Counted from the first letter of the stretch, positions 8,542-38,973 are shown. The stretch: DNA of 64,000 nucleotides from Candidatus Staskawiczbacteria bacterium (GCA_026395295.1 JAPLYZ010000007.1:66518-130517); one strand, 5' to 3'. The notes: generated by a model not told the origin, from the letters alone. A program made the numbers and translations.

Positions 8542-8605
8542 GCCGAGGTGGCGGAATTAGCAGACGCACGGGACCTGCCTGCCGGCAGGCAGGCTCAAAA
8601 TCCCG
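8542..8605 (+). other. partial duplicate of tRNA-Leu 5' half (acceptor, D-arm, anticodon stem/loop) with a 20-nt palindromic hairpin inserted in the anticodon loop
   Basis: 8542-8574 is identical to 8851-8883. A 20-nt CTGCCTGCCGGCAGGCAGGC insertion sits between loop positions 32 and 33, followed by TCAAAATCCCG. The T-arm and acceptor 3' strand are missing. Confidence 0.6.
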
Positions 8606-8613
8606 ATACGCAT

Positions 8614-8850
8614 ATGTACTATGTCTATATAATAAAAAGTGAAAAAAGGAATTATAATTACGTTGGAATTACCAACAATCCCGAGCGACGGATAAAAGAA
8701 CATAATCGAGGATATAATAGAATAACTAAGCCCTATAAACCTTTTAAAATAATATTAATTGAGAAACATTTTGATAGAACCGAAGCCAGAAAAAGAGAAA
8801 AATTTCTAAAATCTGGATATGGCAAAGAATACGTTAAAGGCATCCAATAA
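8614..8850 (+). CDS. GIY-YIG nuclease family protein (UPF0213/YhbQ-like)
   Basis: YYVYIIKSEKRNYNYVGITNNPERRIKEHN...KPFKII, a GIY-YIG motif; 78 aa from the internal ATG. The ORF-track start at 8548 lies inside the tRNA fragment. Confidence 0.8.
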   Translation: MYYVYIIKSEKRNYNYVGITNNPERRIKEHNRGYNRITKPYKPFKIILIEKHFDRTEARKREKFLKSGYGKEYVKGIQ

Positions 8851-8934
8851 GCCGAGGTGGCGGAATTAGCAGACGCACGGGACTCAAAATCCCGCGACAG
8901 CAATGTCATGAGGGTGCAACTCCCTCCCCCGGCA
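8851..8934 (+). tRNA. tRNA-Leu (anticodon CAA), type II with long variable arm
   Basis: Cloverleaf folded by hand: acceptor GCCGAGG/CCCCGGC (one A-C mismatch), anticodon loop CTCAAAA, long variable arm. The T-loop TGCAACT is non-canonical with G at position 55. Discriminator A; CCA not encoded. Confidence 0.75.
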
Positions 8935-8936
8935 CA

Positions 8937-17316: not shown

Positions 17317-17334
17317 TCAAGCCGAATAATTTAA

Positions 17335-17370
17335 AAGACTGTCGATAATCGTCGGACAGTCCTTTTTTTT
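17335..17370 (+). terminator. rho-independent terminator
   Basis: GACTGTCGA..TCGTCGGACAGTC hairpin followed by TTTTTTTT. Confidence 0.55.
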
Positions 17371-17430
17371 GTTCCAAAAATTACATTACAAACAACTTTG
17401 TAGATACTTTTTCACACTTTCTTACAGATA

Positions 17431-17460
17431 CTTTTTAATTTGCGACCGCAGAATAAAAAG
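17431..17460. repeat. palindromic repeat family P36, degenerate copy (core GCGACCGCAGAA)
   Basis: CTTTTTAATTTGCGACCGCAGAATAAAAAG. The core is the reverse-complement form of TTCTGCGGTCGC. Confidence 0.5.
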
Positions 17461-17484
17461 TATTCAACATATCTTACACTTTTC

Positions 17485-18057
17485 TTAGACTTTAAAAAAT
17501 TTTCTGAATTCTTTGTCGTCTCCTATGTCCTGTGAAATTACCAGCTTAGCTTCTTTGCCGTTTAACCCAAAAAAAGATTTTAACAAATTCACTTCTTTTG
17601 CGCAATCGTATGGATTAATCCAAGCGCTTTTCTGAAATAATTGAAAACCCAACTCTTTTAACTTCCCTCTCAGAGCTTCTCTATACGTTCTTTTCATCTC
17701 AGCTATATCAAATAATAGAATCCTCCATTTACCATCCCACTTTTTTGGTTTTATAATTCTTAAATCGTCTATCTGTAGCCAACCAGCTTTCTTTTTACCT
17801 CTCTCTGTAAGAGAAATATATATTTGGTTATTTTTCTCATAAAAATTAACGAACCCCCGCTCCTTCAATTTATAAAAAGTATCATAAACCTTTTTATGAG
17901 GATATTTTCTAAATTTCTTAAAACTCCGCGCAAGATTAACGACAAAAAATGGAGAGGTTGCCGCGATTACTACCATTCCTCCGATTATTAAAAATCCTAA
18001 TACATCTTTTACAATTTCCGACTTAGGGCTTGAAAAATAATTTCTGTATTTATTCAT
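17485..18057 (-). CDS. PaaX-like winged-helix transcriptional regulator with N-terminal TM anchor
   Basis: KWDGKWRILLFDIAEMKRTYREALRGKLKELGFQLFQKSAWINP matches the PaaX middle-domain signature (WDGKW...GFG...W..P). An upstream wHTH-like segment is present; the PaaX C-terminal domain is absent. Confidence 0.5.
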   Translation of the reverse strand: MNKYRNYFSSPKSEIVKDVLGFLIIGGMVVIAATSPFFVVNLARSFKKFRKYPHKKVYDTFYKLKERGFVNFYEKNNQIYISLTERGKKKAGWLQIDDLRIIKPKKWDGKWRILLFDIAEMKRTYREALRGKLKELGFQLFQKSAWINPYDCAKEVNLLKSFFGLNGKEAKLVISQDIGDDKEFRKFFKV

Positions 18058-18084
18058 ATTTTAATTATATCACAACAATCCAAA

Positions 18085-18120
18085 ATACGCCAAATTCTGC
18101 GGTCGCAGAATTTGGCGTAT
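18085..18120. repeat. palindromic repeat family P36 copy (perfect 17-nt arms)
   Basis: ATACGCCAAATTCTGCGGTCGCAGAATTTGGCGTAT, about 30 nt upstream of the PaaX-like gene start. Confidence 0.7.
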
Positions 18121-18143
18121 TCTAACTAGTACAAACATGCATA

Positions 18144-18986
18144 CTAAATGCGAAACAATTTTTTGGCGTTATCCGTGGTTTTATCCGCGACTTCTTGAAA
18201 AGTCATACCCTTTAAGTCTGCTATTTTTTGGATAACGTGTTTTACAAAAATCGGCTCATTCCTGCCAGCCTCCGCCAAAGCTACGGCGGCCAAGGGCGTT
18301 AGATAGGGGCAATCTGTCTCAACCAAAATTTTGTCCAGCGGAGTTTTTTCAATCACCTCCTTCAAATCCAATTTATCAATTATTCCATTAATGCCTAAGT
18401 AAAAACCTAGTTCCATATATTTCTGCGCCTCTGCCCAATTGCCGGTAAAACAATGAATCGTGCCTATAACTTTTTTGTTTGCCAAAATTTCTAACACGTC
18501 TTGATGCGCCATGCGACAATGAATGATCACAGGCAAGTTTAATTCTTCTGCCAATTCTAACTGTTGTATGAAAACTTTTTTCTGTTTCTGCTTAAATTGT
18601 TCTGTTTTGGTTTTACTTTTTGGTTTGTAATAGTAGTCTAAACCAATCTCGCCGATTGCTACCACCCGCCTTCGCCCTCCGGGCTTCGGCAGGGCAAGCT
18701 TTTTATAATTTTCGTAATTAAATTCTTCGCCAAGCGGTTCAAACGCGCCCTCCTCTTCGTCCATTCTTAATTTCAGTAAGTCTGTTTTTATATGGATAGG
18801 ATGCATTCCAATTGCAGCAAAAATTCCTTCATTCTTTTCAGCCAGTTCAACAGCTCTCTTTGAAGTTTCATATTTTGTTCCAACATCAATACAAAGCAAG
18901 CCTGCTTGTTGACAGCGTTTTACAACCTCCTCCCTATCAGCATCATACGCTTTGAAATTTAAATGACTATGCGTATCAATTATCAT
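18144..18986 (-). CDS. tatD: TatD family hydrolase
   Basis: MIIDTHSHL start; conserved His/Asp metal ligands. Confidence 0.85.
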   Translation of the reverse strand: MIIDTHSHLNFKAYDADREEVVKRCQQAGLLCIDVGTKYETSKRAVELAEKNEGIFAAIGMHPIHIKTDLLKLRMDEEEGAFEPLGEEFNYENYKKLALPKPGGRRRVVAIGEIGLDYYYKPKSKTKTEQFKQKQKKVFIQQLELAEELNLPVIIHCRMAHQDVLEILANKKVIGTIHCFTGNWAEAQKYMELGFYLGINGIIDKLDLKEVIEKTPLDKILVETDCPYLTPLAAVALAEAGRNEPIFVKHVIQKIADLKGMTFQEVADKTTDNAKKLFRI

Positions 18987-18988
18987 TT

Positions 18989-20458
18989 CTATTTAGCAAT
19001 TCTGGGAAACAAGTTCTCTGCTTTTTGGGTATCAACGGCCTTTTTTATTTTTTCGGCGGTTTCGGGTAAAAATGGTTCAAGCAGAACTCCAATTTCTTCT
19101 ATGGCTAAAAATAAATCGTTTATGATTTCTAATTTTTTTGCCTGCCCTGAGCTTGTCGAAGGGGTCTCCCACAATTTTTCTTCGTTTATGTATTTATCGC
19201 AAGCGCTTATAATTTCCCAAACAGCTATAAGCGCCTCGTTGAATTTGAAACTCTCCACCGCCAACTTATATTTTTTTTGTTCTTCTTTTATCTTTTTTTG
19301 TAAATTGAAATTTGAAAATTTATTGGAAATTGGAAATTGGAAATTGGAAATTTTCGTTGCTATTCCCAGCACTCTCGCCACCAAATTGCCTATGCCGCCG
19401 GCCAGGTCTGAATTGTATCTTTGTTCAAACTTTTCATAAGTAAAATCGCCGTCTTCCGTTGGAAGAATTTCTCGCAACAAATAATATCTAACTGCGTCAA
19501 CTCCATACTTTTTGACCAACTCAAACGGGTCAACCACATTTCCCAGGCTTTTAGACATCTTCTGCCCGGCAACATTAATAAACCCGTGCACAAAAATTGT
19601 TTTTGGCAATTCCAACCCGGCTGACAAAAGCATCGCCGGCCAAAAAATAGTATGAAATTTCATTATATCTTTTCCTATGCAGTGAACATTTGCCGGCCAT
19701 AATTTTTTAAATTGATCTGTTTCTTCTTCATATCCTATGGCCGAAATATAATTCGGCAAAGCGTCCATCCAAACATATAGGTTCTGCGAGGGGTCTTCAG
19801 GCACCGGCCAACCCCAATATTTATCTTTCATCCTTGAAAAACTAACATCTTCCATGCCCTGTTTTAACATGGACAAGGTCTCATTTTTTTTACCCTCCGG
19901 AACAATTTCCAGCTCTCCACTATTAATCCTTTTTTCAATCTCCTTTGTGTATTTTGAAAGCCTGAAAAAATAGTTTTCTTCTTCAACCAGTTCCAATTTT
20001 TTTAAATGTATCGGGCATTTTCCGTCTATTATTTCCCGATCCGTTTTGAAGGCTTCGCATCCCGGACAATAAAAGCCTTTGTACTTTTTCTTGTAAATAT
20101 CTCCACTTTTTTCTAATTTTTTCCAAAGCTTCTCCACTGCCGGCTTATGCCTGACTTCATCGGTTGTTCTGATAAAATCGTCGTTTGAGACGTTCAAAAC
20201 TTTAACAATATCCTTAAACTTTCCGGACATTTCGTCAGCAAAATCTTTGACATCTCGACCGGCTTCTCTTGCCACTCTCAATGTTTTAATCCCATGCTCA
20301 TCAGTGCCGGTTAAGAAAAAAACATCTTCTCCTAAACCTCTGTGATATCTGGCTAAAACATCTGCCTGAACCGCTTCCAACGCAAAACCAATGTGCGGAG
20401 GCGCATTTGTATATGGTATACTGGTAGTAACGTAGAACTTTTTGCTTTTATTTGTCAT
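18989..20458 (-). CDS. metG: methionyl-tRNA synthetase
   Basis: PYTNAPPHIGF (HIGH), KMSKSLGN, Zn knuckle CPGC..C. Contains two in-frame repeat insertions. Confidence 0.9.
   Translation of the reverse strand: MTNKSKKFYVTTSIPYTNAPPHIGFALEAVQADVLARYHRGLGEDVFFLTGTDEHGIKTLRVAREAGRDVKDFADEMSGKFKDIVKVLNVSNDDFIRTTDEVRHKPAVEKLWKKLEKSGDIYKKKYKGFYCPGCEAFKTDREIIDGKCPIHLKKLELVEEENYFFRLSKYTKEIEKRINSGELEIVPEGKKNETLSMLKQGMEDVSFSRMKDKYWGWPVPEDPSQNLYVWMDALPNYISAIGYEEETDQFKKLWPANVHCIGKDIMKFHTIFWPAMLLSAGLELPKTIFVHGFINVAGQKMSKSLGNVVDPFELVKKYGVDAVRYYLLREILPTEDGDFTYEKFEQRYNSDLAGGIGNLVARVLGIATKISNFQFPISNKFSNFNLQKKIKEEQKKYKLAVESFKFNEALIAVWEIISACDKYINEEKLWETPSTSSGQAKKLEIINDLFLAIEEIGVLLEPFLPETAEKIKKAVDTQKAENLFPRIAK
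19145..19164. repeat. intragenic 21-nt element (CCCTGAGC-NN-GTCGAAGGG) in metG, encoding ETPSTSSGQAKK
   Basis: One of four copies, all in the same orientation relative to the coding strand. Confidence 0.65.
19300..19353. repeat. TTGGAAA heptamer tandem repeat (x4) inside metG, encoding NFQFPISNKFSNF
   Basis: ttggaaattggaaattggaaattggaaatt; the coding strand reads TTTCCAA. Confidence 0.65.
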
Positions 20459-20483
20459 AATGTATTAATTATAACATTTTTTT

Positions 20484-20933
20484 ATGATTTTGCTCGTACA
20501 CCTGCTATTTGGTGCCGCAATTGGGTCTGCAATAAAAAACATTCCGCTGGCGATTATCTTGGCTTTTTTAAGCCATTACTTTTTGGATCTTTTCCCCCAT
20601 ATTGAGTATCCTATTGAAAATCTCAGAAAAAAGCAATGGGATAGGGTGGCAACCGAGGTTTTAAGCATATTCCTAGATTTTTGCTTAGGAATTTTAATTA
20701 TTATTTTTCTTGCCAAAAATCAGCTCTTTGTTTATGTCTGCGCCCTTTTAGCAATAATTCCAGACGGGTTAACGGTTTTAAGTTATCTTTTCCCAAACAA
20801 AGTCTTCACGCTACACGATATTTTCCATAGGCAAAAAATTCATTTTTTAAAAGATAAAAAAATCTCCAATTTTTGGAGAATCACAAGCCAAATTTTAGCG
20901 GCTATTATTTCTATCGCGATATTAATTTCCTAG
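20484..20933 (+). CDS. hypothetical membrane protein
   Basis: 149 aa with 4 predicted TM helices; no recognised motif. Confidence 0.4.
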   Translation: MILLVHLLFGAAIGSAIKNIPLAIILAFLSHYFLDLFPHIEYPIENLRKKQWDRVATEVLSIFLDFCLGILIIIFLAKNQLFVYVCALLAIIPDGLTVLSYLFPNKVFTLHDIFHRQKIHFLKDKKISNFWRITSQILAAIISIAILIS

Positions 20934-21964
20934 TCAGATTCAAAATTGCCCTCTCTTCTTTTTTCTAAGAACTCTTTCACAAACTCAAAAATAATTCCAA
21001 AAACAGGAACCGCAAAAATCGTTCCTAAAAATCCAAACAATTTGGCTCCTACAAGTAAAGATATTAAAACCAAAACTGGCGGCACGTCTACCAGTTTTTT
21101 CATTAAAAGCGGAGTTAAAATTTTATTGTCAATTTCCTGTATTATAAACACTGCTATTAAAATATACAGCACTGTAAGCCATGAGCCAGATGAAACGGCT
21201 ATGAATACAATTAACAACACAGTGGTTATCCATGGTCCTATATATGGCACAAAATTTAAGACTCCGGAAATCAAAGCCAAAATAAAAGCGTATTTTACCC
21301 CGAAAATAAAGAATACGACAAACGAGGCCACTCCCACAAAAAGACAGGAAAGAATTCTTGCGCCAAACCACCCGGAAACTTTGTTTTGAGCTCTTTGGAA
21401 AAGCGTTACAATATTTTCTTCAAATCTTTTTGGGAATACAAGCGTCAAAAATTTCTCAAAGGCCTTGTCTTCCAAAGAAAGAAAAAAGGCAGCTGTTAAA
21501 ATAAAGGCAGTGGAATACAATCCCCCAAAAAACGTTGCCACAGCGCTCATAACTCCCTTAGAGCTCTGGGCAAGACCTCCCACTAAAAGTTTAGTAAAAT
21601 CGTCAAAGGCTTTTGCTGTGTCAATTCCGGTTTGCTGTAAAATTGGGCTGATCTGCTCGAAGTAATCTGGCAAATGCTGGGATAGTTGCTTAAGTTCTGC
21701 GATGAAGAGCGGAGCTGTCAGATAAATTAAAATCCCTAAAATGCCAAAGATTGAAAGATAGACAAACACAACTGCCAAAATTTTCGGCACCCAGAACTTT
21801 TGCAAAAAATCAATCGCCGGCGCCAGCAAAACAGATATTGCCAAGGCAAAAAAGAACCAAAGGGCAATTTCCTTGGTCAAATAAATAAAGTAAAAAACAA
21901 AAATCGCTAAAAATATCTTAGCTATTGTCTGCCATGAAACGTCTAAAACCTGTTCTTTTTCCAT
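20930..21964 (-). CDS. AI-2E family transporter (UPF0118/PerM-like)
   Basis: 8-TM architecture and AI-2E family-like sequence. Confidence 0.75.
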   Translation of the reverse strand: MEKEQVLDVSWQTIAKIFLAIFVFYFIYLTKEIALWFFFALAISVLLAPAIDFLQKFWVPKILAVVFVYLSIFGILGILIYLTAPLFIAELKQLSQHLPDYFEQISPILQQTGIDTAKAFDDFTKLLVGGLAQSSKGVMSAVATFFGGLYSTAFILTAAFFLSLEDKAFEKFLTLVFPKRFEENIVTLFQRAQNKVSGWFGARILSCLFVGVASFVVFFIFGVKYAFILALISGVLNFVPYIGPWITTVLLIVFIAVSSGSWLTVLYILIAVFIIQEIDNKILTPLLMKKLVDVPPVLVLISLLVGAKLFGFLGTIFAVPVFGIIFEFVKEFLEKRREGNFESD

Positions 21965-21966
21965 TT

Positions 21967-23244
21967 TTATAGTTTTAATAACTGCTCCAGCTTGGAAGAA
22001 TCTTTTTCTTCCACCGGGCCAACGACAGCTAAATTGAGTTTCTCTGGAACAAAAATATCTTCTGCTACTTTCTTTATATCATTTATAGAAACCTCGTCAA
22101 TCTTCTTAAATTTTTCTTCGGGCGTTAAGATATTTTTTTCCAGTAGTTCTTGAGCTCCATAAAAAGACGCTTGATGGTCTGACGAATCCAAGGACAAAGA
22201 TGTAGTTCCTTTCAGATAATCCTTTGCTTTCTGCAATTCTTTTTCTGTAATTTTTTTGTCTCTCAAGTCTCTGTACTCCTGCAAAATCAATCCCATGGCC
22301 TTCTCCAAGTTTTTATGGTCAATGCCAGCCTGAGTAACCAAATATCCCGTGTCGGTTGAGGTGTCGGTTGAGGTGTGTATTGAATATGCTAATCCATTCC
22401 TCTCCCTTACTTTTATAAAAAGACGAGAGCTCATGTTTCCTCCCAAAATAATAGAAAGCAAAGCTAGAGCGTATCTCTTCTCATCAAATAAATTGTAAGC
22501 CCGAACTCCCAAACAAAAATGCGTCTGGTCTGTTTTTTTGTAGTGCAATAAAACTTTTGGCTCTTTCTGAATTTCTTCCGCTTTATTTTTTCCGGTTGTC
22601 TTGGCTTTTTGTGCTTTCCCAAAATAACTTTTAATCTTTTCTTCCGCTTCCTTTGACTTAACTCCTCCTGCAACACAAATTATTACGTTTGACGGAGAAT
22701 AATGAGATTTGTAATAATCCAAAACCTTTTTTCTGTTGAAGCTCAATATATTTTCTTTTTCTCCTATCACCATCCATCCTGCAGGCTGGTCGTCATACAA
22801 AAGCTTTTCCCAAAGGTCGCCAACATAAGCTGTCGGGGTGTCTAAATACATATTCATCTCCTCAATTATCACTCCTTTTTCTCTTTCCATTTCCTTTTCG
22901 TCAAACTTGGAATTCAAAAATATATCAGAAATCCAGTCTAATGCAACGCCAAAATGCTTCTTATCAACTTTCGCCCAAAAACCAGTGACTTCTTTAGAAG
23001 TAAAAGCATTATACTCTCCGCCAACTGAATCTAGGGTCTCGGAAATTTTTAAAGTGTTTGGTCGTTTTTCTGTTCCTTTAAAAAACATATGCTCTAAAAA
23101 ATGAGAGATGCCGTTTATGTCTTTTGTTTCGTATTTAGATCCGGTCCCAACCAATATCAAAACCGTGACAGAGTTAGCATTTTCCATCGGAATTGTAATC
23201 ACCCTTAACCCGTTATTTAATATTGTCTTATTATATGAGTTCAT
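21967..23244 (-). CDS. M16 family zinc peptidase (insulinase-like)
   Basis: HFLEHMFFKGT inverted zinc motif (HxxEH). Confidence 0.8.
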   Translation of the reverse strand: MNSYNKTILNNGLRVITIPMENANSVTVLILVGTGSKYETKDINGISHFLEHMFFKGTEKRPNTLKISETLDSVGGEYNAFTSKEVTGFWAKVDKKHFGVALDWISDIFLNSKFDEKEMEREKGVIIEEMNMYLDTPTAYVGDLWEKLLYDDQPAGWMVIGEKENILSFNRKKVLDYYKSHYSPSNVIICVAGGVKSKEAEEKIKSYFGKAQKAKTTGKNKAEEIQKEPKVLLHYKKTDQTHFCLGVRAYNLFDEKRYALALLSIILGGNMSSRLFIKVRERNGLAYSIHTSTDTSTDTGYLVTQAGIDHKNLEKAMGLILQEYRDLRDKKITEKELQKAKDYLKGTTSLSLDSSDHQASFYGAQELLEKNILTPEEKFKKIDEVSINDIKKVAEDIFVPEKLNLAVVGPVEEKDSSKLEQLLKL

Positions 23245-23914
23245 TTTTATAAAATGGAAGCATTAATCTTATTTTTAATATCTCAAACATCATTTTTAAT
23301 CTCAAAACAAACCCCCTGAAAAATCCCCACTTCTCTTCCTTTGTTACCACTTTTAAATTATCCAAAACAACATATTTAACCGTCGAGCCCTTAATTCTGC
23401 AATAGTAGTTAAGACTTGGCTCAACCGCAAACCCTTGTAAAAATTTATCGGGAATCTTTTCAAACAGTCCTCTTTTTATTGCCCTTTCTCCTCCAATGGC
23501 CATTAAAGGGTCGAGAGTGGCAATTAATCTTGGCAGACCCAATAAACGATCTCTTATCCCAACGCACATACCTACATCTTCCTCAAGCATCGGCTTTACC
23601 AGTTTGGAAATATGCTTTTGAGACAAACCAACCAAATCAGCATCAAAAAAAACAATAATTTCAGCGTCAGTTTTTTCCAGCCCAGCCTTCATCGCGTTGC
23701 CTTTGCCACTTCCGCCTATCTTCGGCAATTTCACAACTTCTGCCCCTAATTTTTTACCAATTTCCGCAGTTCTGTCGGTTGAGCCATCGTCCACCAAAAT
23801 AACCCTATCTAAAACTTTCGAATTTAGAAGAACTTTCAAAACTTTTCCGACATTAGCCTCTTCATCTAACGCCGGCACAATGGCCGCAATCTTTTTTTTA
23901 TTTGATTTTACCAT
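23231..23914 (-). CDS. glycosyltransferase family 2 (polyprenol-phosphate sugar transferase-like)
   Basis: IVPALDEE...LVDDGSTDRT GT2 signature; DAD motif. Confidence 0.75.
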   Translation of the reverse strand: MVKSNKKKIAAIVPALDEEANVGKVLKVLLNSKVLDRVILVDDGSTDRTAEIGKKLGAEVVKLPKIGGSGKGNAMKAGLEKTDAEIIVFFDADLVGLSQKHISKLVKPMLEEDVGMCVGIRDRLLGLPRLIATLDPLMAIGGERAIKRGLFEKIPDKFLQGFAVEPSLNYYCRIKGSTVKYVVLDNLKVVTKEEKWGFFRGFVLRLKMMFEILKIRLMLPFYKNELI

Positions 23915-25220
23915 CTAAAAATGCTGGCAAGTCTTTTATTTTTATTCTTTCCTGTTTCATGGTGTCTCTGTCTCTGACTGTTACGTCGTCATTCTTCAAA
24001 GTATCGAAGTCAATTGTTATACAAAAAGGAGTTCCAATTTCGTCTTGGCTGTAATAACGCTTGCCAATGTTCCCCCTGTCGTCAAAAGCAACTACAAAAT
24101 TTTTCTTCAAATCATGAAATACTTCTTTAGCTTTTTCTACCAACTCAGGCTTGTTTTTCAAAAGAGGAAAAACCGCAACCTTATACGGCGCCAATTTCGG
24201 TTTTAATTTCAAAACAACTCTTTCGCCATCCTCCGCATACGCATCGCAAAGCACAGCTAAAACCGACCTATCAACCCCGAAAGTCGGTTCAACAACATGA
24301 GGATACATTTTTTCTCCTGACTCAACGTCTTCATATGGCGGCTCTTTGAAATGATTTTTCAAATCAAAATCTGTGCGGTAAGCTAAGCCATATAATTCCG
24401 ACCTGCCGAAAGGATAATCATATTCTATGTCAATTGTTCTTTTGGAATAATGCGCCCGGTTTTCAGGAAGACACTCGCAATCATGAAGATTTTTCTTTTC
24501 AATGCCCAGTTCGTCGGTCGTCCAAGCCCACATTTCTTTCTGCCATGTTTCAAAAACTTTTTCCCAATCTTCAGCCTTAATAAAATATTCAATCTCCATT
24601 TGTTCAAATTCTCTTGTACGAAAAATGAAATTGCCGGGAGTTACTTCGTTTCTAAAAGCCTTGCCTATTTGCGCAATCCCAAAAGGAATTTTTCTTCTGG
24701 TTGTATCCAACACATTTTTAAAATCAACAAACATCGCCTGAGCTGTTTCCGGGCGAAAGTACACGGTGCTTGCGCTGTCTTCGGTCACACCCAAAAAGGT
24801 CTTCAACATTAAATTAAATTGTCTCGGTTCGCTCAGTTTTCCTTGGCAATCAGGACATTTAATGCTTTTATTAAATTTTTTCGTTTTTTCATAGTCAGGG
24901 TCAATGTGGTCAGCTCTAAATCTTCTTTTGCATTTTTCGCATTCAACCAGCGGGTCGGAAAACTCTTTAAGATGCCCCGAAGCTTCCCAAACTTTTGGGT
25001 TCATAATCAAGGCCGCGTCAATTCCCACCATGTCGTCTCGCTGATGGACAAAACGCTCCCACCAAAGATTTTTTATGTTATTTTTCAGTTCAACTCCCAA
25101 TGGGCCATAGTCAAACGAATTAGCCAATCCGCCATAAATTTCCGACCCGGGGAAAATAAAGCCCCGTCTTTTGCACAAAGACACAATTTTTTCTATTTTT
25201 TCCAAACTATTTTCTTTCAT
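23898..25220 (-). CDS. glyQS: glycyl-tRNA synthetase (class II, alpha2 type)
   Basis: RGFIFPGSEIYGG, FRNE, and class II motifs. Confidence 0.9.
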   Translation of the reverse strand: MKENSLEKIEKIVSLCKRRGFIFPGSEIYGGLANSFDYGPLGVELKNNIKNLWWERFVHQRDDMVGIDAALIMNPKVWEASGHLKEFSDPLVECEKCKRRFRADHIDPDYEKTKKFNKSIKCPDCQGKLSEPRQFNLMLKTFLGVTEDSASTVYFRPETAQAMFVDFKNVLDTTRRKIPFGIAQIGKAFRNEVTPGNFIFRTREFEQMEIEYFIKAEDWEKVFETWQKEMWAWTTDELGIEKKNLHDCECLPENRAHYSKRTIDIEYDYPFGRSELYGLAYRTDFDLKNHFKEPPYEDVESGEKMYPHVVEPTFGVDRSVLAVLCDAYAEDGERVVLKLKPKLAPYKVAVFPLLKNKPELVEKAKEVFHDLKKNFVVAFDDRGNIGKRYYSQDEIGTPFCITIDFDTLKNDDVTVRDRDTMKQERIKIKDLPAFLDGKIK

Positions 25221-25343
25221 GGTATCTATTTTTTTAATTTAGTTTATCTTACCTCTTAAATCGCCGAAATTCAACCTTTCACCCTCTTCAAAACAAAAAG
25301 CGAGCCGAATGATAAAATTGTCTCGCCTTAGTCTAAAAGCCAG

Positions 25344-25379
25344 ATACGTTTAATTCTGCGGTCGCAGAATTAAACGTAT
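25344..25379. repeat. palindromic repeat family P36 copy (perfect 17-nt arms)
   Basis: ATACGTTTAATTCTGCGGTCGCAGAATTAAACGTAT, just downstream of the hss stop codon. Confidence 0.7.
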
Positions 25380-25405
25380 TTGATGTTTTTACTATTTTTT
25401 TTATT

Positions 25406-26854
25406 TTATGGTAAAGTTAGAAAGTTTTTGAATTGCCAGGGGTCTGGGTCGGGCGTGCTTGCCGGGTTTTCCGGAAAGAAAACCGTCCTGCTTTTCAGAG
25501 GGGTCCAATCGCTTGCTTTGGAAATTAAATTTCCCAAATATGGTTTGGCTACTTTTAAAACATAATCGTGTGGCAAGTCTTCGGGCGAGCAAAGTCCTTT
25601 TTTAGGATTATCAATCATCCATTCTATGGCCCCCAAAAGTCCGGCGGCAACCTGCAAAGTTGTGGCATTCTTACCCTTAATTATTTTTCTTGTTTGCTCA
25701 ATGCTTAAAGAAGTTCCTGTCCACCAAGAATTGTAATCGTGCCCCATTAAAAATGCCCCCAAAATGTCTTTGCCCGAAGTTATGTCATCTGTCATTGTTC
25801 TTAATTTCGGTTGCATTATATATCGCCGGGCTTTTAATTCCACCAAAGACGAAAGAGCTTCGTGACAAGGCATATAAACATAATGAACAGTTGGTCTGTA
25901 AATGGCTTTTCCGCTTTGATCTCGCACAGTAAGCCTGTCCGAAATTCCAAAAGCTTCGCCGTGCCTGACAATCATTCCTTCTATTTCGCCAACCTCCGGA
26001 ACCCAAGACCTTGCCCAAGTATTTATTCCCATTCTGGCTAAAAAAATCTGGTTGTCGGGACCAATAACAGGTTTCTCGGCCAGCAGGGGCAATTCTTTTT
26101 CGTGCGTACCCCAGCCCATTTCCGAGGGAGCTGTTCCTTCTTCGTGAAACCCCGGGATAGACCAAGTGTTCACAAACTCATTTACCTGCTTTGGTTTGTT
26201 TGTAATTTGAGTATCTCTCTCCGAGCAATGAATAACCTTCACCCCAAGTTTTTGCGCCAGCCTCGGAAAATCTTTTTTATTTTTATATTCAAGCAATTCT
26301 TCTAAGTCTTTGCCTAGAATCTTTTTATCTTTGACCAGCTTGTCGGCAATATCCAGCAATCCCTTTTTCACAAAGTGCGATATTAACCCCGGGTTTGCGC
26401 CGTGGTCAATAACTGCTGTGGCTGAATCTTTCGGCCAAGTTTTTATCATTTCCCTCAAGCTCATCTGACGGGAATGCAAAGTTTTGCTGTAAACAGTCGG
26501 CAAATTGTTGGTGTCCCATAATTCCACGGAAGTATTTATGTATAAATTGTTGTGGTCATGGCACCATTTTATAATGTCATCTGCTCCTATGTTCCAGGCA
26601 AGGTCTATGACAAATCCGTTATCGCCGGCGTACTTTGTCATCACAGCATTTAAATTCTCTGGAGTAATCCTTTTTCTGTAATACTTCAAGCCCTTTTTTG
26701 TAAAAGGTTTCAATTGCTCCAATTTATTTTCAAAATCAATTATGGTTATATTTTTCAATGGAACATCCACGTGTTTTAAAAATAGAGGAAGCGTGCACTG
26801 TGCGACTGCGCCATAACCTAAAATTGTAATTTTTCCGTTAAATTTTTTGGACAT
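25406..26854 (-). CDS. hss: homospermidine synthase
   Basis: Aligns along its full length with bacterial HSS (ITILGYGAVAQCTLPL; DHGANPGLISHFVK; ERDTQ...VNTWS..GF; C-terminal DPWQFKNFL). Confidence 0.85.
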   Translation of the reverse strand: MSKKFNGKITILGYGAVAQCTLPLFLKHVDVPLKNITIIDFENKLEQLKPFTKKGLKYYRKRITPENLNAVMTKYAGDNGFVIDLAWNIGADDIIKWCHDHNNLYINTSVELWDTNNLPTVYSKTLHSRQMSLREMIKTWPKDSATAVIDHGANPGLISHFVKKGLLDIADKLVKDKKILGKDLEELLEYKNKKDFPRLAQKLGVKVIHCSERDTQITNKPKQVNEFVNTWSIPGFHEEGTAPSEMGWGTHEKELPLLAEKPVIGPDNQIFLARMGINTWARSWVPEVGEIEGMIVRHGEAFGISDRLTVRDQSGKAIYRPTVHYVYMPCHEALSSLVELKARRYIMQPKLRTMTDDITSGKDILGAFLMGHDYNSWWTGTSLSIEQTRKIIKGKNATTLQVAAGLLGAIEWMIDNPKKGLCSPEDLPHDYVLKVAKPYLGNLISKASDWTPLKSRTVFFPENPASTPDPDPWQFKNFLTLP

Positions 26855-26855
26855 T

Positions 26856-28046
26856 TTATTCGTTTATGTGAATAATTTTTGCAGGAGGAAAACCATTAAA
26901 ATTTGTTGCTGACGCATTCGAATATGCGCCGATGTTCTCCTGATAAATCAAATCTCCGTCTTCTAATTTTGGCAAAAAAGCATCTTTTGAATTGTGTATG
27001 TAAGAATTTTCCGAAAGTTCGTCTAAGCCATCGCAGGTCTGGCCAAAAACTTTGCACTTGATTTTTTCACCTTTTTTGAATGTTTCTAGGTTTGGTTCAA
27101 AATGGTCATATATAATAGCTGAAAAAGTATGATAAACTCCATCATCAATATGATAACAAGGCATCTCGGTTGAATGTTTCGCAAGAACAACTTTTGAAAT
27201 TGCTGTTCCGGCATTAGCCACCAAAAACCTGCCGGGCTCGGCAATTATGGCTGTATTTTCTCTTGGGAATAATTTATCGAGTTCTCTGTTTATCATTTCA
27301 GTCAATTTTCCAAAACAATTTTCATTTCCATTATACTGCGCGGGGAATCCTCCTCCTATATCCACGATTTTTATGGCGTGGTCAGAAGTTCTTTTTTCCC
27401 CAATTTCGAGTCCTCTTTTTTCCGCTTCCGCAAAAACTTCCGCCACAGACCTTAGCGCTTTTATAAAATTATCCGGATTATTGCATTGACTTCCGGCATG
27501 AAAACTTATGCCCTCAACCTCCAACCCTTCTTTGATTGTCTCCCCTATCAAATCCACCGCCAATTTTGGGTCAATACCAAATTTATTGGAAAATTTTACA
27601 ACAGAACCTTCGTCGCAAACCTTCAAACGCAATAATAATCCCGCATCGGGGCAGTGCTTTTTTATTTTTCTCATTTCTTCAACGCTGTCGTAAGTTAAGA
27701 GCGGTTTGTATAAATTCAAAACATGCAAAGAGTCGGGCTTCTTTACCGGATTAGCATAAATAATCTTATTCCAAATAAAATCTTGCAAGGCTTCCGGCTC
27801 GAGATACTTTACCATATTAAAAACAAGATTGAATTCAGGAAGCGATGCCACGTCAAAGCTGGCTCCCATGTCATACAAAGTTTTTATTATCTTCGGCTCT
27901 GAATTTGCCTTAACGGCAAAATAAACCTGCACCCGAGGAAGTTTTTTTCTAAACTCTGAATAATTTTTTCTTATTTTATCGTGGTCAATAACCAGCAACG
28001 GAGTCTCGTGCTCGTTAACTAAACTTTCAATTTTTTTTCTGTCCAT
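26856..28046 (-). CDS. ornithine/lysine decarboxylase (PLP-dependent, alanine-racemase fold)
   Basis: FAVKANSEP...GASFDVAS PLP-Lys motif; GGGF motif. Confidence 0.8.
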   Translation of the reverse strand: MDRKKIESLVNEHETPLLVIDHDKIRKNYSEFRKKLPRVQVYFAVKANSEPKIIKTLYDMGASFDVASLPEFNLVFNMVKYLEPEALQDFIWNKIIYANPVKKPDSLHVLNLYKPLLTYDSVEEMRKIKKHCPDAGLLLRLKVCDEGSVVKFSNKFGIDPKLAVDLIGETIKEGLEVEGISFHAGSQCNNPDNFIKALRSVAEVFAEAEKRGLEIGEKRTSDHAIKIVDIGGGFPAQYNGNENCFGKLTEMINRELDKLFPRENTAIIAEPGRFLVANAGTAISKVVLAKHSTEMPCYHIDDGVYHTFSAIIYDHFEPNLETFKKGEKIKCKVFGQTCDGLDELSENSYIHNSKDAFLPKLEDGDLIYQENIGAYSNASATNFNGFPPAKIIHINE

Positions 28047-28164
28047 TAATTTTTAATTTTAAATTTCTAAATTATTTTATTCTACTCTTTCCAAAATTAA
28101 ATTTCAATATCATTTTTATCCGTATAAAAAAATTCCCAATGTTCGGCAAAGCGTTCACTGGGAC

Positions 28165-28743
28165 TTAAGTCTTTCTTTTTTTAGAAGCTATTTCCAACAA
28201 TTTCTGCTTAGCATGCTCGTATTCCCCGTCAAGAATGGCTTTTATCTCCGGCTCAATTTTATCCCAATCTCTCGCCAGTTTTTCGGCAAGTGTTTGGTAC
28301 ACCGCCACCTCTAAAATTCCCCGGTCTTCCACCTGGACCCGCCACAGCTCCTCCAAATTTCCGAAATGTTCTATTGCGTCCGCCGCCGCTACACATTTCG
28401 CTTCAATTGTTTGAAATGCAATCCTTTGGCTTCCACGATGAGAATAAACGGCGCTTATTATTGGTCCTATCAACGGCAAGGGACATCCGCACTTAAGCAG
28501 AATCGGCCCAGCTTCTTGCGCTCCGGTAATATGATGGTTTTCCTTTCCATATTTCGCCGCTCCCACGTCGTGAAGAAGACCTCCTGCTTCAGCGACGAAC
28601 TTATCTCCCTGCATTTTTCCCGCAAAGTCTTTTGCATATTGCGCGACCCGTTGAGCGTGCCGCCAAATAAAAAGTTTGTAGTGAGGGCTGGACAGGTAAA
28701 TCGGTTTTACTTCCCTTCTTATTCTTCTGATGACGCATTCCAT
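28165..28743 (-). CDS. HD-domain phosphohydrolase
   Basis: H..HD motif (LLHDVG); higher GC than neighbouring genes. Confidence 0.6.
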   Translation of the reverse strand: MECVIRRIRREVKPIYLSSPHYKLFIWRHAQRVAQYAKDFAGKMQGDKFVAEAGGLLHDVGAAKYGKENHHITGAQEAGPILLKCGCPLPLIGPIISAVYSHRGSQRIAFQTIEAKCVAAADAIEHFGNLEELWRVQVEDRGILEVAVYQTLAEKLARDWDKIEPEIKAILDGEYEHAKQKLLEIASKKRKT

Positions 28744-28878
28744 AGTCAGCTCCTTTCTGTAAATTATTTTTTAATGTGCATTGAATTTATATTACATCGT
28801 TAAAACAATTTGTCAACAAACCGCACCCAAAAAATCGGCTCAAATGATGGAAATAATACGCCTTAGTCTCAGAGTCAA

Positions 28879-28914
28879 ATACGTTTTATTCTGCGGTCGC
28901 AGAATTCAGCGTAT
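28879..28914. repeat. palindromic repeat family P36 copy (imperfect arms)
   Basis: ATACGTTTTATTCTGCGGTCGCAGAATTCAGCGTAT, upstream of the HD gene. Shares the CGCCTTAGTCT flank with the 25344 copy. Confidence 0.65.
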
Positions 28915-28990
28915 CTGATATTTTCAATTGTTAATTGATTTATTTTGCTTTCTTAAAAATCAAATTTCCATTTATTGCTTTCGATCATAT

Positions 28991-29400
28991 AAAAAAATGC
29001 GCACGTCCTTTTGGTCGTGCGCTTTGTGCCAACTTGGAATGTTTCATCCTTCGCGAGACAGTCGGCGTGCCTATGGTCAGAAGACCATCCGTTGTTTCCC
29101 ATAAAAGCGTGAGCTCATACGGGTGATAAAATCCCTGTTCTCGGGGGTACAGCGGCGATTCCCTAAAAAGCAAAACCACTTTGTTCCTTGCGCATCTGTC
29201 CCTACCTAGTATGGAGGTATCAGCGCAAAATTCTGCTTTTCTGAAGAACAGCACCCACATGGCAGCACGGGTTTTCCCTTTTTATACCCGAAGGGTTCCC
29301 CGTGTGTGGGCTTTGAGCATACCAGGATTTTAGCGGGCGATGATATATCTCATAGGCATATCCTTTCTTGTCAAAGAGCAAACCATTTGCTCCGTACCTT
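28991..29400 (-). ncRNA. unassigned structured ncRNA candidate (GC-rich island, no plausible ORF)
   Basis: About 50% GC in a roughly 37% GC genome. Candidate promoter TTGACA -N17- ATTATA near 29430 on the minus strand. Clean terminator GCGCACG..CGTGCGC + T7 at 28991-29022. Only spurious ORFs cross it. Confidence 0.35.
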
Positions 29401-29484
29401 TATAATAATCCTAATCCCTATTTTGTCAAAACAAAAACCCAAAAGAATAACTTCGGACTTTGTTTCTAGAAAAATAAACCTTTT

Positions 29485-38935: not shown

Positions 38936-38973
38936 ATAGTAAGTTTTTTGGCTCGAGCCAAAAAACTTACTAT
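38936..38973. terminator. perfect 38-nt palindrome after the phosphatase gene (terminator/operator candidate)
   Basis: ATAGTAAGTTTTTTGGCTCGAGCCAAAAAACTTACTAT. Confidence 0.45.

Follow-up and report, generated by a model that had tools for sequence, protein, structure and literature searches.

Palindromes on both sides of a PaaX-like regulator gene in Candidatus Staskawiczbacteria as putative operators

What is the role of long palindromes that stand on both sides of a single regulator gene and recur, in the same genome, on both sides of a block of polyamine genes? The question is raised by a stretch of 64,000 nucleotides (hereafter the window; GCA_026395295.1, JAPLYZ010000007.1:66518-130517) from a metagenome-assembled genome of Candidatus Staskawiczbacteria, an uncultivated bacterium of the Patescibacteria or Candidate Phyla Radiation (CPR). 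It holds four copies (c1-c4) of a palindrome family with the consensus ATACG-N4-ATTCTGCG-GT-CGCAGAAT-N4-CGTAT, two of them next to a gene for a PaaX-like protein of 190 aa (Table 1). A first-pass annotation of this DNA had proposed that the palindrome is either an operator of the PaaX-like protein or a structured terminator resembling repetitive extragenic palindromic (REP) elements. The operator half of this proposal has gained ground and the terminator half has lost it. The palindromes, 36-38 bp long, are probably double-stranded operators of the adjacent regulator, which would repress its own gene. We favour this reading because the motif accompanies the gene in seven of seven species, keeps a fixed distance to the predicted -10 element and has the geometry of a PaaX operator.

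The palindromes and the gene they accompany

All four copies listed by the first-pass annotation are present, c1 being degenerate and somewhat wider than noted there (17428-17463 vs 17431-17460), and the perfect 17-nt arms ascribed to two copies are those of c2 and c3. The arms of these two differ from each other (CCAA/TTGG in c2 vs TTTA/TAAA in c3). In c1, 15/18 positions pair (2 mismatches per 17-nt arm pairing); on the plus strand its central dinucleotide is AC, that of the other three GT. With up to three mismatches allowed, the 16-mer core has seven strand-hits in the window vs 0.55 expected, and the full 36-nt pattern has six vs 0.00. A covariance model (R1), built on an alignment of nine family members (A3) and run over the 64 kb with filters off, found c1-c4 alone, the next match reaching 13.6 bits (E 0.5), and no Rfam family matched the palindromes or the longer repeats in which c3 and c4 are embedded. 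The spacings between the window copies (657, 7259 and 3535 nt) do not make a regularly spaced array of the CRISPR type.

Two further observations concern palindromic or repeated sequence in the window. Another perfect palindrome of 38 nt, ATAGTAAGTTTTTTGGCTCGAGCCAAAAAACTTACTAT (38936-38973), belongs to a similar length class, scores only 13.6 bits with R1 and lies between a histidine-phosphatase gene, whose stop precedes it by 4 nt, and a gene for a 330-aa protein, 72 nt downstream. Around c1 (17402-17488) there are local duplications, namely AGATACTTTTT (17402 and 17427) and CAC(A)CTTT(T)CTTA (17413 and 17476).

Table 1. Features of the window and of the loci compared with it. Positions count from the first nucleotide of the window; sequences of relatives are those of the two palindromes flanking the PaaX-like gene.
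Feature	Position	Strand	Description
Intrinsic terminator	17333-17370	strandless	canonical, bidirectional, beyond c1; A-run, GGACTGTC...GACAGTC, T-run
c1	17428-17463	strandless	downstream copy of PaaX-like gene; degenerate; ends ATACT...AGTAT; covariance score 54.5 bits
PaaX-like gene	17485-18057	-	190 aa; hydrophobic N-terminal helix, winged helix, PaaX_M (Cas2-like); no PaaX_C
Predicted extended -10	18058-18069	-	TGTGATATAAT; hexamer TATAAT 18069-18064; then 6 nt to ATG 18057
c2	18085-18120	strandless	promoter-proximal copy of PaaX-like gene; perfect 17-nt arms, ATACGCCAAATTCTGCG GT CGCAGAATTTGGCGTAT
Module with c3	25295-25406	strandless	about 100-112 nt; 75% identical to 28830-28941; carries CGCCTTAGTCT flank
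c3	25344-25379	strandless	perfect 17-nt arms; 26 nt past hss stop, 123 nt upstream of GlyRS start
Polyamine block	25406-28743	-	homospermidine synthase (hss) 25406-26854, ornithine decarboxylase 26856-28046, HD hydrolase 28165-28743 (Pfam)
Module with c4	28830-28941	strandless	second copy of the module of about 100 nt
c4	28879-28914	strandless	imperfect, 14/18 paired (3 mismatches per 17-nt arm pairing); 135 nt upstream of HD start
L049			protein identity 77%; upstream ATACGCTATAAATATGCGGTCGCATAGTTATGGCGTAC; downstream ATACGCCGAATTATGCGGTCGCAAGAATTGGAGTAT
L050			protein identity 74%; upstream ATACTTAGAATTCTGCGGTCGCAGAGATTGAAGTAT; downstream ATACTCCGAATTTTGCGATCGCAGAATTATAAGTAT
L051			protein identity 69%; upstream ATACGCCATAATCTAGCGGTCGCTAGATTATGGCGTAT; downstream ATACGCCTTAATTATGCGTACGCATAATTAAGGCGTAT; both perfect palindromes
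L054			protein identity 63%; upstream TTACGTTATATAAATGCTATCGCAGGTATATAGAGTAA; downstream TTACGCTGTATAAATGCTATCGCAGGTATATAGAGTAA
L060			upstream and downstream copies present
L061			protein identity 73%; upstream and downstream copies present

The strongest evidence comes from relatives. Our comparison used loci (with L numbers) in which the PaaX-like gene or one of its neighbours has an orthologue, and it covers seven species with the gene, the window included. In each of the seven, at protein identities of 63-100%, the gene is bracketed on both sides by palindromes of the family, whose 18 copies take the form ATACG-N26-CGTAT (36 bp) or ATACGC-N26-GCGTAT (38 bp), and the relatives' loci of 8-21 kb contain the flanking pair only. 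Both copies are kept even in L054, where the gene lies in another neighbourhood (ClpB, cadherin-like genes) and the upstream copy stands between divergent genes. L044 and L047, the closest loci by methionyl-tRNA synthetase (MetRS, 81%) and syntenic with the window, have no gene in the slot between TatD and leucyl-tRNA synthetase (LeuRS) and no palindrome copy in 21 kb each, and we count this joint absence in favour of the operator reading. These two loci had suggested a late arrival of the PaaX-like gene as a cassette, an idea that we rejected since five other species carry the gene at the same place between TatD and LeuRS.

The position of the upstream copy is as regular as its presence. The first-pass annotation had placed c2 about 30 nt upstream of the gene; read on the minus strand, it is separated by 23 nt from the TatD stop on one side and by 27 nt from the ATG on the other. 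A spacer of 15 nt separates it from TATAAT, and a promoter-like site has its -35 (TTGGCG) within a c2 arm. L049, L050, L054 and L061 also have 15 nt between the palindrome end and the predicted extended -10 (TGTGATATAAT, GGTATAAT or TGTGGTATTAT), L051 has 16 nt and L060 has 10 nt. The distance is 15-16 nt in 6/7 species, and the spacer sequences differ between species despite their near-constant length. With such a spacer the site would cover about -63 to -28. The window, L049 and L061 have an identical arrangement of predicted -10, 6 nt and ATG, which suggests a leaderless or very-short-leader mRNA, while in L050, L051 and L054 the same 15-16-nt spacer goes with predicted 5' untranslated regions of about 40 nt. 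The downstream copy begins between -1 and 25 nt past the stop codon across species (21 nt for c1).

Outside these loci the family is scarce. The 18-mer ATTCTGCGGTCGCAGAAT has 15 matches in 185,579 species genomes and 18 in metagenome contigs, spread over many phyla and never more than one per contig, and by our own estimate about 17 genome matches are expected by chance. Such chance-level counts, with at most one copy per contig, indicate that the element is neither widespread nor high-copy. Only L038 and L029 are clear relatives among the matches. The copy in L038 is one compensated pair away from c2, sits after a gene and is flanked by A and T runs; the one in L029 (1634-1667) is a perfect palindrome of 34 nt whose inner 28/28 bases are those of c2 and whose ends read TGC/GCA instead of ATAC/GTAT. 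L016, L031/L034 and L024 have the common core with other outer arms and may be terminators that look alike by chance.

Further observations were made on these matches and loci. Marinimicrobia contigs (L017, L023, L025, L030, L037, L039, L041 and L043) carry the 18-mer core in a conserved flank (cctgagcaaaytra before it, aa... after it); these matches were set aside and probably represent a conserved hairpin in orthologous position that is unrelated to the present family. L052 (10540-10720), from a strain of the L051 species, has a 90-nt tandem duplication relative to L051 that takes in the final 36 nt of the PaaX-like gene, the palindrome downstream of it and another 16 nt, and which is either a local duplication provoked by the palindrome or an assembly artefact. 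In L050 (5440-5885) and L061 (9540-9905) the space separating TatD from the PaaX-like gene holds a conserved, GC-rich element of about 330-440 nt that has a TTGACA promoter-like site and a terminator of its own. The identity between the two species is 71-73% at its two ends; Rfam has no match for the element, and the window lacks it at this position.

The PaaX-like protein and a possible mode of action

The protein encoded between c1 and c2 combines a winged helix (weak TrmB match at residues 52-80) with a PaaX_M domain (PF20803, E 1e-19), and stops after the latter, Pfam giving no match to PaaX_C (PF08223). In its AlphaFold (AF2) model, with a pLDDT (predicted local distance difference test) of 78, the very hydrophobic N-terminal helix (residues 14-34) is of low confidence; it may be a membrane anchor. 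Foldseek returned E. coli PaaX (8a39, E 4e-4) and Rv0674 (3kfw) as the best solved structures, followed by many Cas2 proteins, and PADLOC returned weak Cas2 matches only and no defence system. The family is large, with 1177 homologues detected, which are mostly about 191 aa long, highly conserved and for the most part without a functional name.

E. coli PaaX recognises the operator TGATTC(N27)GAATCA and, by hindering RNA polymerase, acts as the repressor of its own promoter, Px (review, PMC9493321). The likeness to the window is threefold: a winged helix joined to a Cas2-like PaaX_M core; an arrangement of two short inverted blocks that spans 36-39 bp, with about three helical turns between the blocks (here ATACG(N26)CGTAT); and a site over the regulator's own promoter, which here is a predicted one. 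There are differences too. The window protein has no PaaX_C effector domain, which is the part that responds to aryl-CoA, carries the hydrophobic N-terminal helix and falls far below the cutoff of the NCBIfam PaaX equivalog TIGR02277 (32.1 bits vs 264.55). No paa catabolic genes are found among its neighbours, which are aminoacyl-tRNA synthetases, TatD, an M16 peptidase and polyamine genes. The half-site sequence is another one, the 26 bp between the blocks form a palindrome of their own whose GC-rich centre is conserved, and there is a second site just past the stop codon. Judged by these comparisons, the protein and its palindromes seem to work like a PaaX-operator pair, and we do not treat the protein as a PaaX orthologue. 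A literature search on PaaX with Cas2-like domains and on REP elements in Patescibacteria brought up nothing relevant.

In the operator model, a dimer joined through the Cas2-like PaaX_M would set its two winged helices on the outer ATACG and CGTAT blocks, which lie about 31 bp apart from centre to centre, or roughly three helical turns, and would thus present the same face of the DNA. The conserved TGCG-NN-CGCA centre might serve as a second contact or as a spacing element. Binding at the upstream copy would control transcription of the regulator's own gene, in the simplest case by occlusion of RNA polymerase as with E. coli PaaX at Px. The copy past the stop codon would be a second site that either closes a repression loop over the gene of about 650 bp or acts as a roadblock. 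Looping repressors such as GalR (OE/OI), LacI (O1/O2) and DeoR likewise use two equivalent palindromic sites on either side of a promoter or transcription unit, and one of the two falls within the transcribed region or beyond it; here, however, the second site follows the stop codon, so that the putative loop would enclose the whole gene. Finally, duplication of a module of about 100 nt to both ends of the operon for HD hydrolase, ornithine decarboxylase and homospermidine synthase may have put this operon under the same protein.

The polyamine block and neighbouring features

The second pair of palindromes had been described as bracketing the polyamine block and as sharing an additional flank. 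Both points hold in this genome: c3 and c4 flank the block as direct repeats, and the shared CGCCTTAGTCT is part of a repeat of about 112 nt with 75% identity. The link itself is not conserved. The slot between the gene for a 553-aa protein and that for glycyl-tRNA synthetase (GlyRS) is occupied by PvlArgDC in L044, by DS and PvlArgDC in L047, by PvlArgDC, DS and arginase in L051, and by HD-hss in L060; no remnants of PvlArgDC, DS or arginase were found in the polyamine slot of the window. In L060, the HD-hss genes lack the palindrome and an unrelated terminator hairpin follows hss, while the PaaX-like gene and its own flanking sites are present. The hss gene of L057, the closest one (83%), has a different context that is again free of the motif. 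A conserved polyamine regulon, considered as a candidate, was rejected on account of these two motif-free cases.

The pair c3/c4 thus looks like a lineage-specific duplication of the module, seen in this genome only among those compared. The duplicated copies may recruit the regulator to the operon, form transcript ends or merely be dispersed copies. A small RNA from the plus strand of the c3/c4 module was also considered as a candidate, given an extended -10-like TGATAAAAT, a 20-nt leader, the hairpin and a U-rich tail. On its operon side, c4 is 62 nt upstream of a promoter-like site (TTGACA-16-TAATAT). An extra half-arm-like ATACGCC is found 23 nt to its left (28856-28862).

Adjacent to this block, on the minus strand, lies a candidate structured non-coding RNA of about 400 nt (28990-29430), which has 49% GC vs about 38% locally and a minimum free energy z-score of -3.2. 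It is framed by a strong promoter-like TTGACA-16-TATTAT (29429..29402) and a canonical terminator, GCGCACG...CGTGCGC followed by T7 (29025-28994), has no Rfam match, contains a 91-aa open reading frame (ORF) without a protein-family match and is absent from the slot in relatives.

All genes between 14.4 and 31 kb are on the minus strand, in the order LeuRS, PaaX_M protein, TatD, MetRS, AI-2E permease, M16 peptidase, glycosyltransferase, GlyRS, hss, ornithine decarboxylase, HD hydrolase and the 553-aa protein. Elsewhere in the window (8542-8935), the first 33 nt of a tRNA-Leu(CAA) gene (8851-8883) are exactly duplicated at 8542-8574. This upstream copy has a hairpin inserted in the anticodon stem and runs into an ORF of 100 aa (8548-8850) that resembles GIY-YIG nucleases (YYVYIIKSEKRNYNYVGITNNPERRIKEHN), which suggests a small mobile insertion beside the tRNA gene.

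Protein site, hairpin or repeat

The first-pass annotation had seen compensatory changes in the arms and had taken them to imply selection for a hairpin or cruciform. Complementarity is indeed far above that of randomly re-paired arms: across 14 copies the self-complementarity of the variable arms is 100 vs 63.4 +/- 6.4 (0/20000), and in A3 90% of the pairs are formed, with 14 double-sided changes vs 5.8 expected. When arms are swapped within the same genome only, on the other hand, the real arrangement ranks 28th of 768 (p ~0.036), which makes the within-genome evidence for hairpin selection weak. The symmetry of the arms mostly reflects a half-site consensus common to each genome, as is expected of a homodimer site that co-evolves with its protein, and the step from compensation to a selected hairpin is therefore weaker than claimed.

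What is conserved also goes beyond mere pairing. The mismatches in the arms have no wobble bias (8 GT, 3 AC, about 17 other), and conservation resides in sequence blocks, namely the ATAC ends, the TGCG(G/A)TCGCA centre and AATT. Where these blocks are altered, in L054 and L060, they are altered jointly in both copies of the genome. The arms of L061 are unlike each other, with 11-12/18 positions paired, yet both are kept in both copies, which fits a protein site and not a hairpin. The downstream copy of L061 is the reverse complement of the upstream one (35/38), those of L054 are identical at 36/38 positions in direct orientation, and the relative orientation of the two copies varies between species. 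The comparisons in L061 and L054 indicate that the two sites evolve in concert irrespective of orientation, as expected of a symmetric protein site.

Several observations speak against an operator and temper our confidence in it. DNA binding by the 190-aa protein is not assured, as judged from the missing PaaX_C and from the hydrophobic helix, modelled with low confidence, that precedes the winged helix; and PaaX systems are not known to have a site directly past the stop codon. L060 and L057 do not show the polyamine link, and c3 and c4 lack the 15-nt promoter geometry. The palindrome of L029 lies in frame within the rsmA/ksgA coding sequence (encoding ...TAPNSATAEFGA...); the insertion probably leaves this RsmA no longer than E. 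coli KsgA. Finally, c2, c3, L038 and both L051 copies pair perfectly at positions that vary between copies of one genome, which a dimer site does not need. Template switching is an established process by which quasi-palindromes are 'corrected', and it is a possible neutral cause of the perfect arms.

Among the alternatives, the one that survives best is that the palindromes act as RNA hairpins at transcript ends, as terminators, 3' stabilisers or insulators that isolate the regulator gene and the polyamine operon and resemble each other by common descent. The predicted RNA hairpins, with -10 to -30 kcal/mol and z-scores of -4 to -10, and the covarying arms would suit it, as would the position of every window copy 21-70 nt after a minus-strand stop codon or terminator, the T-runs that follow c2 and L038 and give these two the stem-loop and U-tract of an intrinsic terminator, and the location of c3 at the spot where L060 has its unrelated terminator hairpin. 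Bidirectional intrinsic terminators of compact genomes are similar in being long GC-centred hairpins in short spacers just after stops, with A/T runs as at c2 and L038. Their sequence blocks, however, are not conserved across species and tied to one gene family as they are here. Moreover, the upstream copy in L054, being placed between divergent genes, can have no terminator role there. Canonical terminators stand further on from the downstream copy in the window, L054, L060 and L061; the one beyond c1 shows that this genome employs terminators of the ordinary kind and that c1 is not the sole stop signal. Most copies lack a U-tract, those of c1, c3 and c4 being poor, and neither the unbiased mismatches nor the conserved but poorly pairing arms of L061 agree with a hairpin. 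The ATAC and TGCG blocks, the fixed -10 spacing and the exclusive tie to one gene family would be left unexplained. We regard this explanation as unlikely, and the very low copy number also speaks against the REP-like structured terminator of the first-pass annotation.

Less likely again is a unit comparable to REP elements and their REP-associated tyrosine transposases (RAYTs), in which a domesticated nucleic-acid binder with a Cas2 fold would recognise the flanking hairpins in single-stranded form and occasionally copy them (c3, c4, L038, L029). Two palindromes around the gene in every species recall the REPs around RAYT genes, and the window shares with such REPtrons a single-copy gene between copies of a palindrome of about 36 nt and a few extra intergenic copies. 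The extra copies occur in some genomes only, c3/c4 belong to a duplicated module, one copy lies in frame in rsmA of L029, local duplications are found at c1 and in L052, the perfect arms of several copies suggest recent generation via a hairpin, and the Cas2-like fold is backed by a structure match. However, the protein has no HUH/Y1 transposase motif, a single histidine and no Pfam match to Y1_Tnp; the palindrome has no GTAG head, and its upstream copy keeps a fixed promoter geometry. Copy number appears to be two orders of magnitude below that of REPs, with four copies in the 64 kb of the window and only the flanking pair in the relatives' loci of 8-21 kb, the collection scans for the 18-mer stay at chance level, and no clear target-site duplications were seen.

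A related and still more doubtful version is that folded hairpins, as single-stranded DNA or RNA, are recognised by a protein with winged helix and Cas2 fold that helps to generate or maintain the palindromes, in a low-copy REP/RAYT-like or proto-repeat system. If true, a Cas2-fold protein would replace the HUH transposase in such a role, and the perfect copy-specific arms, the in-frame copy in rsmA of L029 and the duplicated modules around a recently exchanged polyamine operon would be explained. Least probable are recombination sites of the attC or dif-module kind at the ends of exchangeable gene cassettes: both bracketed slots do vary (TatD-LeuRS being empty or different in L044 and L047, the polyamine slot differing in L044, L047, L051 and L060), and c3/c4 are direct repeats around a block without remnants of alternative genes, but the regulator is found in the same slot in five other species and so looks ancestral there, the HD-hss block of L060 occupies the same slot without any such site, no recombinase adjoins in the window and no integrase is found among the ORFs examined at 14-32 kb, empty slots retain no single 'scar' copy, copy orientation is inconsistent between species, and two separate units 7 kb apart are not the tandem layout of an integron.

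Taken together, the operator reading is well supported by the comparative evidence and is, in our judgement, probably correct, with the terminator, REP and cassette readings less likely. To our knowledge, very few transcription factors have been characterised in Patescibacteria (CPR) and essentially no cis-regulatory sites validated. The pairing of a widely conserved family of 190-aa proteins (about 1200 homologues) with a precise site of 36-38 bp would provide a directly testable predicted regulator-site pair in this group, and one that can be tested on synthetic DNA with no need for cultivation. As a minimal PaaX, consisting of a DNA-binding head and a Cas2-like dimeriser, lacking a ligand domain and possibly anchored in the membrane, the protein would also bear on the relationship of the PaaX family to Cas2-like domains. 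If c3 and c4 are functional, this regulator would, in at least one lineage, control the synthesis of polyamines, a process of importance in these reduced genomes.

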